Assembly (NCBI GenBank): GCA_040754655.1
Contig: JBFMCE010000048.1
Location: 1 to 30,597 of the forward strand
Source: Bdellovibrionota bacterium
GTDB taxonomy: Bacteria > Bdellovibrionota > UBA1018 > UBA923
Length of the DNA stretch: 30,597 nucleotides
Direction: 5' to 3'
The first letter of the stretch is position 1. Every line of letters begins with the position of its first letter. Below are positions 6,341 to 10,466 of the stretch, one piece after another. The notes below the pieces were generated by a model. It was not told the origin of the DNA, did no database searches, and saw only the letters and a list, made by a program, of their open reading frames with translations. Position numbers and translations under genes: made by a program.

Positions 6341-6970
6341 ATGCAGACCAAATCAAACCAAGCCAAAGTGATAGGCCTGACCGGCAATATCGGTTGCGGC
6401 AAATCGGCGGTGGCGAAGATTTTGGCGACACTGGGAGCAGCGGTCGTCGATGCCGATCAGGTTTCCAGGGAAGTCACGAAAACAGGAACTCCATTGCTTC
6501 GAACGCTTCTGGCTGAGTTCGGTCCTGGCATCATTGACGCCGAAACAGGCGAGCTCAACCGCCAAGCTTTGCGGGGCATCGTATTTGCCGACCCAAAGAA
6601 GAGACGACGGCTGGAATCACTCTTGCACCCCGCCATCGCAAAGAGATCTAGGGAACGTTTTGAAGAACTCTTTAAAAGCGGCGCAGAGGTGGTGATTTAT
6701 GAAGCGACCTTGATTGTCGAGGCCAAACGGACCGCTGAATTCGACGGGCTCCTCGTCATTACTGCTGATTCTTCCACTCAAATGAGGCGCCTTATGGAAA
6801 GAGACCCCGGCTTGACTACACAAACCGCGCACCAAATCCTCTCGGCTCAGCTGCCCCAATCTGAAAAGATTAAAGCCGCCACCTGGGTCATCGAGAATAA
6901 TGGCAGTCTTGAGGAGTTGAGTTCGAAAGTCGAACAGTGGTGGGCAAACGTGCGATCAAGAAGCGGTTGA
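6341..6970 (+). CDS. coaE: Dephospho-CoA kinase
   Basis: IGLTGNIGCGKS P-loop, VDAD, LNRQALRGIVF, LLHPAI, SAQLP, VIENNG. Confidence 0.95.
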   Translation: MQTKSNQAKVIGLTGNIGCGKSAVAKILATLGAAVVDADQVSREVTKTGTPLLRTLLAEFGPGIIDAETGELNRQALRGIVFADPKKRRRLESLLHPAIAKRSRERFEELFKSGAEVVIYEATLIVEAKRTAEFDGLLVITADSSTQMRRLMERDPGLTTQTAHQILSAQLPQSEKIKAATWVIENNGSLEELSSKVEQWWANVRSRSG

Positions 6971-9388
6971 AGTATCGGAAGACCGCAAGTCTGCATGCGA
7001 TGGAAGCTCAAGGCCCGCGATCTTAAGCTGGGTGATGCCTTTAAAACCTGACTCAAGCTTGCCTTGCAGTTCAAGGCTGGCCTGACCGATTTGGACAAGC
7101 CGCTGAACCTTCTGTTCAATTGAACTCATTTGATTCTTGATTCGAGCCGAAGCCTCTCCCAAGACCGACAGTTCTTTTCCGAACTCAACGTATTCCTTGG
7201 TGCTCGCATCAATGAAGCGGCCGGCTTGATAAGCAGAGTTCATGGCGGCCTCGTCTTCGATCGCCACTTGAGCGCAAACGCCCAAGCTCTCTTTGAGCTC
7301 TGAACTCAAGCTGCGCACTCCTTGGTCAACTTCAGCGACGGTCTGCTCGATCATGCGATAACTTCGCTCAAACTGAAGCATGATCTTCGCCACGTTCTCG
7401 GTGACCGCGATGACGTCGGCCTGGGTGAGCTCACGCTTGGCGCCGAGAATGCTATTGTTGGCGTTAAAGACCGAAGACTTTGAAAGAAGCGCGCGGATCG
7501 AGCCCTCGGTAGAACGCACGTGTTCCAAGAGTTTTTCGGTTTGCTCGACGCGCTCGACGCAATTCGAAACTTGTTGCTTGATCTTAGCGATATCGGTGAG
7601 CACGGTACCGCCCTGGCGCCTGATCTCCTCGTAAGTCTGCCTCAAGGTCTTGTTTCGAGTCTCGAGCTTCCCCATGCGAGCGCGCAGTTCGGTTGAATAT
7701 TCAACGAGCCCCGAGACCTCTGATTGCAGTGCTTGCACCTCAGCGCCTACTTGTTCGGTGCGCGTGAAAACCGTCTTTTTCAACTGGCCCTCGCGACCCA
7801 TGCGTTCAGCCATGGTTTGGATTTGACCCGCGACTGTGGCAGCACTCTCTTGAAGCTCGAGCGCAAACCCCTTCAGCAGGCGGATGCACTCTACCACCGG
7901 CGCTCTAGTCCCAGGCGCCGGGTCCGTGGGCAAGAGGCCCGTTTGAATGCGCTGAATAGCAGTACGCACCGACTCAAGTTGTTTGGCCAATTCAGTCTCT
8001 GCCCTGCGGTTCTCATCGCGCAGATCCCGAATGTGGACCATCACGTATTCCACCTGGCCGTCCGCGCCATGAACGGGCGTACATAGAGCATGAACCGCGA
8101 CCCCATCATCCCCTACCCGCAGGAGCGCGAGTTGAGAGATTTCTTTATTCTCAGAAAACGCCTTGCCAATTGGATCGACCACTTTGTTCTGTACATCGGT
8201 GAATCGAACGAGGTTTCCGTAAGCTACCGGTCCGGTTTCTTCCAGAGCCCTTACCTTGCCCAGTATTGAAAGGGCTGAGTTCCAGAAAATGCCTTGTTTA
8301 TTGCGGTTGACGAGCAAAAAGGGCACGTTGAGCAGCCGTTTCACCAAGAGATCTTCTTTGCGAAGCGAATTCACCCGTCTCATCGTTTGATCAAGGGCGC
8401 GATACACTTCAACCAACTCGGCATCGGGCCTTTCAGGAACCTTGAACTCATGAGCGCTCACATTCCCGCCGACCGTGATCCAGTGGGTAAGCTGCTCAAC
8501 CACATGCGCGCTCAACTGGCTCAGGTGTTTGGAAAAACGCCCCGTCGAGAAGATGAACCATAGAGTCGAAAGCGATACGAAAAGAAGGAACATCACGATC
8601 GCTTTGAAAACGTCGGCATGGGCGTCATTGGCAAAATCCACGAAGGTTTTGCTCTGTTGATCATTGTAGCGTTTGAGCGCGGCGGAAAGTCTTCTGAGCA
8701 CCTCGAGACGGGTGGCTTTTTCGGTTTGGAACTGCTGGCAAGCTTCAATGTAACGGGACGCGCGTTGTTTGAGCACCTCGAGCTGGCCAAAGATCATGAT
8801 CTTGGTATGATGAGGCAGGGTGGAACGCGTCACAACCGCCGTGAGCTGCGAGACTTTAGAGATCACCCCGGCGGCGGCTCTCTCTCCCATCTGAAAAGAA
8901 AGATTATCGATATCACTGACGGCGATGCCTACGATGCGAGCGACCTGCATCCACTTGTTGGCCCATGAAAGACGGTAGAGGTTGAACGTAGTGGTTTTGA
9001 GATTTCGATAATGGACGAAAAGATCCTCGGCCGTCCTGCTCTTGTTTTGAGACAGCCCTTCCAAGAGTTTTTCCGCTTCATCGAGGGATTTGTCCGAGTT
9101 TTCTTTTTTCAACGCTTTCACATCGTCGAGCATCGCGACGATCTTCTCATTGAAAGCATCTTCGCCATCGTCACGAGCCACCGGAGAATTCGCGAGCTCC
9201 TCAGCCACCTTGACGCGCGCGGCGATCACCCTTCCCGTAGCCAGCGTCTTCTGGTCACCCGAAAGCACCCGCATCATATTCTTTTCGTACTCTCGAAACT
9301 TTTGAAGGATATAGGCCGACGAGAAGCCTCCGAAGACGAGCGCCACCACGACTGCTGAGACAAAGCGCCGCTGAAGGCTAGGACGCAT
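6956..9388 (-). CDS. Divergent chemoreceptor (MCP)-like membrane protein: TM-periplasmic-TM-HAMP-like-PAS-coiled coil
   Basis: Two TM segments (~aa 9-28 and ~263-281). PAS-like LNVPFLLVNRNKQGIFWN...TPVHGADGQVEYVMVHIRD. Long coiled coil containing KSSVFNANNSILGAK...VTENVAKI...MIEQTVAEV, which aligns loosely to the MCP tip QTNLLALNAAIEAAR...VADEVRKL...EIEQMIEEI. Confidence 0.6.
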   Translation of the reverse strand: MRPSLQRRFVSAVVVALVFGGFSSAYILQKFREYEKNMMRVLSGDQKTLATGRVIAARVKVAEELANSPVARDDGEDAFNEKIVAMLDDVKALKKENSDKSLDEAEKLLEGLSQNKSRTAEDLFVHYRNLKTTTFNLYRLSWANKWMQVARIVGIAVSDIDNLSFQMGERAAAGVISKVSQLTAVVTRSTLPHHTKIMIFGQLEVLKQRASRYIEACQQFQTEKATRLEVLRRLSAALKRYNDQQSKTFVDFANDAHADVFKAIVMFLLFVSLSTLWFIFSTGRFSKHLSQLSAHVVEQLTHWITVGGNVSAHEFKVPERPDAELVEVYRALDQTMRRVNSLRKEDLLVKRLLNVPFLLVNRNKQGIFWNSALSILGKVRALEETGPVAYGNLVRFTDVQNKVVDPIGKAFSENKEISQLALLRVGDDGVAVHALCTPVHGADGQVEYVMVHIRDLRDENRRAETELAKQLESVRTAIQRIQTGLLPTDPAPGTRAPVVECIRLLKGFALELQESAATVAGQIQTMAERMGREGQLKKTVFTRTEQVGAEVQALQSEVSGLVEYSTELRARMGKLETRNKTLRQTYEEIRRQGGTVLTDIAKIKQQVSNCVERVEQTEKLLEHVRSTEGSIRALLSKSSVFNANNSILGAKRELTQADVIAVTENVAKIMLQFERSYRMIEQTVAEVDQGVRSLSSELKESLGVCAQVAIEDEAAMNSAYQAGRFIDASTKEYVEFGKELSVLGEASARIKNQMSSIEQKVQRLVQIGQASLELQGKLESGFKGITQLKIAGLELPSHADLRSSDTSTAS

Positions 9389-10466
9389 GGCTCACCCCGC
9401 TCTTCAGGTCGCCGTAAACAAGATAGGCGGGGTTCAAAACCAGTCCAAGCTCGCTCTGCGCGCTTTCGTCTACATATACTCCAAGTAGCCTTCCCGATCC
9501 GCTCAAAGCAGAATCAATCGGCAAGATGAAGATTTCTTGAACCGCATGAGTCGAAGCAACGGCGTAACGGATCGTCTCAGTGCCTGCTCCCAACTCAATG
9601 AGGTGCCTCGGCCCTTCAGGTTCGGCGAATGGCATCCCGGGCAAAGTGCGGATGCGCTCAAGATCGCGGGAAAGCATCCAAATTTCTGAATCCTCAGTGA
9701 CAAGCGATTCCGAGAGAGCGCGCGGAAACTCCCTGATGCTCAAGACGGCCCACGCAGGAACATAGACCTTACGTTGGCCGACTTTCACCGGCAGACAAGG
9801 AACTTCGCCCGCACAAGCGGGAAGGGAGAACAACCAGGCAGACCATTTTCCGGGCTTGCCTTCAAACGACACCCTCACCCCGAGCTTGGCCAGGGCCAAT
9901 CCGCTGAGATCAGAGAGCGGGGGCAAGATCCCGTTGCCATCGCAAATCACCCGCAACTGAAATCCCTTTTCCGACTCTCGCACCTCGAGTTGCATGTATG
10001 CGATGGGTCGTTTCTTGCGGGCGGAGCGTTCTTTCGAAGACTCGATGCTGTACTCGACGAAAACATCGAGCATCTCAAGGAATATGGGCCCGAACCTCTC
10101 GAGCAACCGGCGATCAAGGCGTGCGGCGGAAGGCTTGCACTCGACATTGACGTTTCTTCCGAGTTTTTGCGCTAAAGCCTCGATGCGTTTCTTCGATTCC
10201 TCGAAGAGGGTCGCGCAACTCTCAAGTTTGTCGGTCACGAGCTGTTCGAGCAAGCACTTCGACAGGCTGCCAAAACGATCGATGCCCGTAGACAACTGAT
10301 CGAGCTCTAAGTGCAGGTCTTGCAGCTGAGCAACTCCCAAAGCCTTGATCAAGGCGCTTGAGGCCGAGCCTTCAAGCGTTCGCTCTAGCTTTCTCAGGCT
10401 TTCCGAGAGTTTCTTTCTTTCTGCTACAAGATCACCGCCAAGGGCGATCAGTTCATCTAATGTCAT
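9378..10466 (-). CDS. CheA-derived protein (P3 dimerisation + degenerate P4 HATPase + P5 CheW-like), probable pseudokinase
   Basis: LDELIALGGDLV resembles CheA P3 LDQLMNLVGELV. LAQKLGRNV...LDRRLLE...IESSKER...KKR resembles the start of CheA P4. G1 box CDGNG. C-terminal VKVGQRKVYVPAWAV...GLVLNP is CheW-like. No Hpt domain. Confidence 0.72.
   Translation of the reverse strand: MTLDELIALGGDLVAERKKLSESLRKLERTLEGSASSALIKALGVAQLQDLHLELDQLSTGIDRFGSLSKCLLEQLVTDKLESCATLFEESKKRIEALAQKLGRNVNVECKPSAARLDRRLLERFGPIFLEMLDVFVEYSIESSKERSARKKRPIAYMQLEVRESEKGFQLRVICDGNGILPPLSDLSGLALAKLGVRVSFEGKPGKWSAWLFSLPACAGEVPCLPVKVGQRKVYVPAWAVLSIREFPRALSESLVTEDSEIWMLSRDLERIRTLPGMPFAEPEGPRHLIELGAGTETIRYAVASTHAVQEIFILPIDSALSGSGRLLGVYVDESAQSELGLVLNPAYLVYGDLKSGVSHAS

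Follow-up and report, generated by a model that had tools for sequence, protein, structure and literature searches.

A CheA-Like Protein Without Catalytic Motifs and Its Chemoreceptor-Like Neighbor Behind fliA in Bdellovibrionota

Introduction

CheA phosphorylation, coupling through CheW, and receptor tips that hardly vary are the defining traits of bacterial chemosensory systems, and the hairpin tips of methyl-accepting chemotaxis proteins (MCPs) and the P4 and P5 domains of CheA are normally among the most conserved chemotaxis sequences. The subject of the present study is a pair of genes found in a 30,597-nucleotide (nt) stretch of DNA, hereafter the window, from an uncultured Bdellovibrionota bacterium related to predatory bacteria (genome G000; GenBank assembly GCA_040754655.1, contig JBFMCE010000048.1). 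Directly behind fliA, the gene for the flagellar sigma-28 factor, stand a gene for a CheA-derived protein of 362 amino acids (aa), here designated CheA', and a gene for an MCP-like protein of 810 aa, here designated the receptor.

The P3-P4-P5 order and fold are common to CheA' and the CheA proteins of T. maritima (1b3q) and E. coli (6s1k). CheA' differs in containing no P1 or P2, in having lost the N-box Asn, the G1 Asp, the ATP lid, and the G2 box, and in the erosion of its interface-2 segment; in addition, no cheW, cheY, cheR, or cheB lies beside its gene. A stand-alone P3-P4-P5 protein is also known from R. sphaeroides, where CheA4—according to the available portion of PMC3591291, an active kinase without P1 and with an ATP-binding P4—works with CheA3 (P1-P5), whereas CheA' has neither the catalytic signature nor a co-distributed P1 partner. 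Like transmembrane MCPs (TM1143, 2ch7; Tsr), the receptor has two transmembrane (TM) helices, a helical periplasmic domain, a hairpin of about 20 heptads per arm (in its predicted model), and tip residues in register, but it has no PF00015 match over the cut-off, methylation sites are almost lacking, in its tip the GFAVVA half is replaced, and its best-conserved part is a family-specific PAS domain. ParP of Vibrio and Pseudomonas, which acts with ParC, resembles CheW/P5, lacks catalytic activity, and, according to the available sections of PMC5706961, plays a structural part close to the flagellar pole. Its binding partners are ordinary MCPs and CheA, whereas CheA' retains P3 and a pseudo-P4, brings its own receptor, is still present where searches for the genes of an ordinary array found none, and has no ParA or ParC gene alongside except flhG. 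As these systems are defined, CheA' and the receptor are not a CheA kinase, a split CheA, or an MCP, yet they are built from their parts.

No already characterized family matching both proteins was found, in keeping with the original prediction made from the letters of the window alone. Nor did the full-text literature, which takes in few subscription journals and no supplements, so that a mention in a genome table is possible, yield a description of the module or of BMS_0567/0568; the available part of PMC8067016 covers canonical che genes only. What is new here is that the receptor is a core gene, mostly labeled hypothetical, in all 100 sampled genomes of the family of Bacteriovorax and Halobacteriovorax (Bacteriovoracaceae, labeled f22; the other families carry labels such as f1, f7, f13, f14, and f21).

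CheA' as a P3-P4-P5 Protein with a Remodeled P4

The predicted descent of CheA' from CheA is borne out at the levels of both sequence and fold. Comparison with T. maritima CheA gave E 1.3e-7 in phmmer and E 5.5e-10 with a profile, and HHalign against 12 canonical CheAs gave a probability of 99.0 over 313 columns. In Foldseek, the predicted model (predicted local distance difference test, pLDDT, 87) matches 1b3q with E 7.1e-21; in VIA, the Z score is 19.1 to 6s1k and 18.6 to P4 (root-mean-square deviation 1.9 Å, 138 residues), with values of 18–19 for four CheA entries versus 13.9 for the next kinase. By fold and sequence, the P3, P4, and P5 domain set of CheA is thus present; P1 (Hpt, carrying the phospho-His) is missing, with the open reading frame (ORF) of CheA' beginning at P3, 3 nt past the fliA stop. 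Among 1.84 billion representative sequences, 21 match CheA' with E<1e-30, all of them 178–370 aa and none long enough for P1, and canonical CheAs follow from about 1e-27. In a FastTree phylogeny with 38 canonical CheAs, the 22 CheA' sequences included group together as a single clade (support 0.80, long branches), and probe P0055 found nothing across 401 genomes beyond known carriers and canonical CheAs.

The catalytic roles of the N-box Asn, the G1 Asp, the F box, the ATP lid, and the G2 box are well established. In an alignment of 32 CheA' rows, two near-duplicate pairs included (E. coli CheA numbering counted from the 6s1k alignment), the N-box Asn (N380) is kept in one row and the first Asp of the G1 box (DxGxG) in none, H384 is replaced by Tyr or Phe in all 32, and the G2 box is found in 0/32 rows versus 12/12 canonical CheAs. 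Furthermore, the span from G1 to the P4-P5 linker is exactly 36 residues in every row versus 81–83 in 10/12 canonical CheAs (those measured)—that is, a fixed deletion of about 45 residues takes out both the ATP lid and the G2 box—and the constancy of this span therefore suggests that the lid was removed by one old deletion. Judging from these losses, it is very probable that CheA' is no kinase. For f1 and f7, the idea that P4 might bind adenine was abandoned, the first Asp being replaced in 32/32 rows; the f13 and f14 copies of CheA' retain DDG.

Other parts of CheA' are strictly kept. New residues invariant in 32/32 rows (GNG, N178, P183, and F201) stand at the deletion site in P4, and the CheA-specific E..ER..R.K loop is retained, with E142 in 31/32 rows and R147 and K152 in 32/32. 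The receptor-groove positions of P5 and the E. coli interface-2 residues L545, V551, and Y558 are named in the available part of PMC13098124. In CheA', the groove positions stay Pro or hydrophobic (P237 in 32/32 rows; Val, Ile, or Leu at 241 in 28/32), and the interface-2 segment is 15% identical and shrunk to 16–25 residues, versus about 60, in 8/32 rows. From these features we infer that CheA' would be a dimer able to hold a receptor tip and unable to phosphorylate or to build rings.

The Receptor Resembles Chemoreceptors in Fold and Layout

The predicted model of the receptor (pLDDT 79; predicted template modeling score 0.33, making the relative domain positions unreliable) contains long helices, a PAS fold at 357–455, and a hairpin of helices 496–649 and 656–793. 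Together with hydropathy, it gives the order TM1, helical periplasmic domain, TM2, linker, PAS fold, and long hairpin, corresponding to the predicted TM-sensor-TM topology with a cytoplasmic helical hairpin of MCPs. MCPs are the best Foldseek matches (E 6.9e-7; TM-target 0.74 for HAMP-Tsr), MCP clusters rank first in the ESM Atlas (0.89, the level of a lead), and similarities of the N-terminal part are to sensors of the MCP and TorS types and to two unnamed clusters from Bdellovibrionota (765 and 785 aa). The best PDB match of the tip profile is the MCP 2ch7 (TM1143), gap-free across the tip with E 9e-4, where an unrelated coiled coil scores E 1.1e-3. Leu, Asn, and Ile are in register with TM1143 at the turn of the model, and f13 and f14 receptor tips, read by eye, contain other remnants of the MCP motif.

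Sequence searches gave less. With a hidden Markov model of the MCP tip, A4 members score no better than reversed controls; PF00015 has no match over the cut-off, the best being 1/13 receptors at E 0.021; and after TM2 there is no Pfam HAMP match, the model is of low confidence at 301–353, and the Atlas neighbors include HAMP clusters. Sites fitting what we take to be the CheR/CheB methylation consensus occur in 2/20 and 0/17 receptors versus 10/10 canonical MCPs, so that the foreseen loss of canonical motifs is seen in both proteins, the catalytic motifs of CheA' being kept in 0–1 of 32 rows. The predicted descent from MCPs is upheld by fold, layout, and motif placement, with MCPs first in Foldseek, and not by profile–profile scores, which are not significant; MCP ancestry, resting on the former and not on a significant sequence score, is therefore likely, not proven. 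A complex prediction of two receptor tips (585–725) with P5 (214–355) scored 0.01 against a mark of 0.32 and was counted neither for nor against binding.

Selection and Synteny

Both genes are under purifying selection. In three f1 pairs, whose dS values come close to saturation, the ratio of nonsynonymous to synonymous substitution rates (dN/dS; Nei-Gojobori) is 0.13–0.28 for the CheA' and receptor genes, and for the receptor it is 0.03–0.09 in three f22 pairs; selection rather than decay, for which values near 1 would be expected, had been anticipated. For the closest f1 pair, constraint is strongest in P4 within CheA' (0.06) and in the PAS domain within the receptor (0.08), not in the tip (0.18), with the hairpin arms at 0.39–0.53. 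Between G000 and G004, CheA' and the receptor are 47–48% identical, diverging like CoaE (46%).

The tight coupling and conserved position after fliA expected from the window are found in the relatives as well. Among the first nine, seven have fliA, CheA', and the receptor in this order, one has the pair at a contig end, and one has fliA and the start of CheA'; in G003, the CheA' start stands at a contig end (read by eye). In the relatives measured, the gap between fliA and CheA' is −4 to 16 nt, CheA' and the receptor overlap by 4–11 nt in 8/8 cases, and the frames are intact in all complete copies.

The Receptor as a Core Gene with a Variable Partner

A class-level search with the first profile found the module in 9/127 genomes, and weak matches in a 401-genome sample of the phylum then led to further fliA-adjacent receptor orthologues, with an HHalign probability of 97.4 over 463 columns between the f22 and f1/f7 receptors. 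A profile of the sensor and PAS domains (26 rows, 16 of them from f22, so that lineages absent from it could be missed) matched 112/401 genomes: 100/100 in f22, 4/6 in f1, 2/2 in f7, 3/8 in f13, 1/2 in f14, and, with one weak match (E 5.8e-6), 1/53 in f21; it matched none in f3 (58 genomes), f10 (17), f16 (20), f18 (34), f25 (27), f23 (14), f19 (9), or f15 (9). Two of the weak f22 matches in the 401-genome sample (G332 and G416) proved to be ordinary MCPs. Exact look-up places f22 receptors in Bacteriovorax stolpii and Halobacteriovorax marinus, where they are annotated as hypothetical or membrane proteins and, in one case, automatically as an MCP; WP_014243265.1 and WP_102244735.1 are accessions of such receptors.

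At the f22 fliA loci, the receptor lies at most one gene from fliA in 27/28 cases, the contig ending first in the other. An unrelated 240-aa ORF lies between the two in 1/28 loci and a conserved gene of about 310 aa in 10/28; the latter is also found in the contig-end locus (11 in all) and is under purifying selection, with dN/dS 0.05–0.15. Its products include BMS_0567 of H. marinus and WP_102244736.1 of B. stolpii. In G110 of f14 and in two genomes of f13, the gene before the receptor encodes a recognizable CheA' without the lid, with HHalign probabilities of 96.5 to CheA' and 88.7 to CheA. Receptor and FliA trees of 26 genomes have 13/23 splits in common, including 8/10 well-supported ones, versus a shuffle maximum of 3, which fits vertical inheritance and repeated loss. 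Since the receptor is found in 100/100 f22 genomes with the partner often missing, it is the receptor that makes up the conserved core; the pseudo-CheA is an adaptor that can be dispensed with. This weakens the idea of a strictly co-degenerate pair. The originally proposed co-degeneration of an obligate pair was not supported in strict form, the receptor standing without a partner in 16/28 f22 loci and the PAS domain, not the tip, being most constrained.

Relation to Ordinary Chemotaxis

In G000, estimated to be 90% complete, no CheB, no MCP over the cut-off, and no other P3 domain were found, and CheR appeared only as a partial methyltransferase match. The only other CheW domains are in one CheW and one Hpt-Hpt-CheW protein (457 aa; first Hpt assigned from the alignment pattern), beside an HD-GYP-type gene on contig C106. 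Orthologues of the Hpt-Hpt-CheW protein occur, among 101 genomes, only in G000, G004, G008, and G009, and were not found in the pair carriers G001, G002, G006, G007, G015, and G023. Other carriers have canonical che clusters, which vary; no CheW match was obtained in G007 (71% complete) or G015 (92%). Because canonical components were not found in G000 and the clusters of other carriers are variable, the pair neither needs nor tracks the normal chemotaxis pathway.

On C106 (L023:2018-4732), the CheW gene, the Hpt-Hpt-CheW gene, which has no kinase domain, and the HD-GYP-type gene form one run behind a metallophosphoesterase gene, an order kept in G004, in G008, and, up to the contig end, in G009; this run, a second kinase-less chemosensory remnant, possibly steers cyclic di-GMP turnover. 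A candidate partner of its proteins is a small membrane receptor of 374 aa whose MCP hairpin is short and half-degenerate (L024:10406-11530, on contig C30 of G000; PF00015 E 1.5e-7, under the cut-off), encoded among PilZ and GYF_2 genes and having orthologues in G004, G008, G009, and G023, not in G001. Contig C30 also encodes, at 11634-18001, a 1989-aa protein of Ser/Thr kinase-AAA-GAF type that ends in an Hpt domain and an intact CheA-type P4, with no P5 (domains assigned by eye), followed by a 133-aa receiver-like ORF.

Proposed Mechanism and Alternatives

To the following reading we assign a probability of about one half: the module is a phosphorylation-independent membrane sensor or scaffold of the flagellar operon, in which the receptor forms the core and CheA', an optional adaptor, works through its remodeled P4. 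An ancient chemosensory core would have been fixed at the end of the flagellar operon, where fliA, CheA', and the receptor are presumably co-transcribed, and turned into a phosphorylation-independent platform. The receptor, as a putative membrane dimer, would read a periplasmic cue and, through PAS, a cytoplasmic one, and would bear the long coiled-coil hairpin. CheA', its private and optional adaptor, would dimerize via P3 and dock the groove of P5 on the altered hairpin tip; it would be unable to phosphorylate and would probably not extend into hexagonal arrays. The remodeled P4 may then offer a protein-binding output surface, the likely target being the co-encoded flagellar machinery, where the module might affect the position, number, or timing of the polar flagellum in connection with FlhF, FlhG, and FliA.

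Several observations weigh against this reading. HHalign of the receptor families against 10 local MCPs reached probabilities of only 0.1–2, and the receptor directly follows fliA, with no partner gene, in the 16/28 f22 loci mentioned above. The f22 gene of about 310 aa has no detectable homology to CheA', f13/f14 CheA', or canonical CheA, with one best local match in the expected register. Neither gene occurs in G005 (97% complete, same family, flagellated), and the module is missing from 12 further flagellated genomes of the order, in which the fliA flank was read, and from 15 flagellated genomes in 11 other families. It does not track FlhG either: G015 has the pair with no flhG between flhF and fliA, and G005 has flhG and no pair. 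Gene neighborhood is evidence of co-regulation at best, not of a target. A bolder version, doubtful as a whole, takes the module to be descended from the chemosensory core but free of kinase and CheW, its receptor signaling by direct contact. It would be ancestral to two classes of Bdellovibrionota-like bacteria, then a core gene of Bacteriovoracaceae predators, and would relay a periplasmic or PAS cue to the building or shedding of the polar flagellum at the attack/growth switch, with the lid-less P4 as a new interaction module and the Bacteriovorax/Halobacteriovorax gene of about 310 aa as its end-stage.

The presence of the receptor in 100/100 sampled f22 genomes, the sensor core and PAS domain being best kept across classes, and its survival without a CheA-like partner or a tip motif would also suit a sensor that reads prey contact or the state of the envelope or redox balance for the predatory life cycle and that stands behind fliA only since the swimming phase requires both, its target being something other than the flagellum. 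This appears unlikely, the receptor not being found in the 53 f21 genomes, one weak match aside, or in several other families of the phylum. Somewhat less likely still is a ParP-like anchor or nucleator, in which the pair enters ordinary chemoreceptor arrays via P5 and tethers them at the flagellar pole. The kept P5 fold, groove residues, and C-terminal motif, the canonical che clusters of most carriers, and the precedent of Vibrio ParP, which joins core units through MCP and CheA contacts (available sections of PMC5706961), speak for it. However, the pair is under selection in G000, in which no canonical array components were found, CheW has no match in G007 or G015, and canonical clusters vary among carriers while the pair does not.

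We consider it improbable that CheA' is a decoy or brake that binds Hpt/P1, CheW, or canonical CheA and damps the phosphorelay to CheY in the sigma-28 phase. The E..ER..R.K loop is kept, and G000 has Hpt-bearing kinases, the Hpt-Hpt-CheW protein, and a FliM N-terminus of what we take to be the CheY-binding type; however, docking of P1 by this loop is our assumption, for which no confirming paper was found, and the constrained sensor and PAS domains and the lone f22 receptor would be left unexplained. A split kinase as in R. sphaeroides CheA4 and CheA3, with CheA' as the P3-P4-P5 half phosphorylating the Hpt-Hpt-CheW protein of C106, has in its favor the same domain set as CheA4 and the adjoining Hpt-CheW (457 aa) and CheW genes in G000. 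It is very improbable given that the P4 of CheA4 binds ATP, whereas CheA' is without the N-box Asn, G1 Asp, lid, and G2 box, and that the Hpt-CheW protein, with orthologues in four genomes only, is missing from six pair carriers. Simple decay of a chemotaxis locus could account for the long branches and for the fact that the partner gene and the entire module were lost repeatedly, but it is hardly credible beside dN/dS far below 1, intact frames, a fixed-length deletion with new invariant residues in CheA', and a receptor in 100/100 f22 genomes.

Locus Layout and Genomic Context

The predicted arrangement of the genes proved exact in coordinates and spacing, with a 3-nt gap between the fliA stop and the CheA' ORF and an 11-nt overlap of the CheA' and receptor ORFs (Table 1). 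On the basis of this spacing rather than RNA, the run from fliL to flhG, fliA, CheA', and the receptor is probably a shared operon; the overlap and its internal ribosome-binding-like stretch suggest translational coupling. The His-Ala C-terminal tail of CheA' (window 9378-9390; 11/32 rows) spells the receptor ATG and is therefore probably a by-product of such coupling. GC content is even over the module region. A sigma-28-type promoter consensus, as we assume it to read, was found upstream in none of five loci, one of which has little upstream DNA.

Table 1. Features of the fliA-CheA'-receptor region of the window.
Feature	Position	Strand	Remarks
fliA (sigma-28)	10470..11456	-	Module adjoins the fliA 3' end wherever the junction was seen
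CheA-derived pseudokinase CheA', 362 aa	9378..10466	-	P3 dimerization helices ~1-80, lid-less P4 ~81-216, P5/CheW-like ~217-352; no P1/P2
Chemoreceptor-like membrane protein, 810 aa	6956..9388	-	TM1 ~10-28, all-helical periplasmic domain, TM2 ~263-281, HAMP-position linker, PAS ~346-457, helical hairpin turn 649-656, degenerate MCP tip
Purine-rich ribosome-binding-like stretch and receptor start codon	9386..9412	-	Within the last codons of CheA'
coaE, convergent	6341..6970	+	15-nt overlap with the receptor 3' end; marks the unit end
fliL-fliM-fliN-fliO-fliP-fliQ-fliR-flhB-flhA-flhF-flhG run	11453..22567	-	Upstream of fliA; short gaps or overlaps

Consistent with the original observation that the window contains no cheW, cheY, cheR, or cheB, Pfam gave no CheW, CheR, CheB, MCPsignal, or HATPase_c match at E<=0.5 and no receiver domain among the 27 ORFs scanned (those of <80 aa and some shadow ORFs lying outside the scan), and neither CheA' nor the receptor was named above the cut-off.

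Among the flagellar genes, FliA (10470-11456) is extended at its N terminus by about 85 residues of acidic character, its open frames being 300–390 aa in this order versus about 260 aa in other families, and FliO (19111-20361) is 416 aa long. Between flhF and fliA, flhG is missing in G015, G016, and G017 and strongly diverged in G019, G010, G014, and G020 (L041:8102-8136; L104-L110). At 22921-29412, the flagellar cluster is split between fliL and flgE by an opposite-strand M11-like metallopeptidase gene, an IS200-like transposase gene, and an unassigned 540-aa ORF; GC content falls to 0.47-0.49 at 25-29 kb. At 51-1981, two ORFs without a Pfam family (257 and 380 aa) recur across the order near coaE/mazG and the flagellar operon end and are duplicated in G001 and G005.

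Significance

The present survey provides a hypothesis for a gene that all sampled genomes of the Bacteriovorax/Halobacteriovorax family carry, and one that is testable, since the receptor gene lies directly behind fliA and is present in cultured predators. If the proposed reading is true, a selected CheA without lid or P1, paired with an unmethylated receptor of its own, would demonstrate that the chemosensory core is reusable as a non-enzymatic device.

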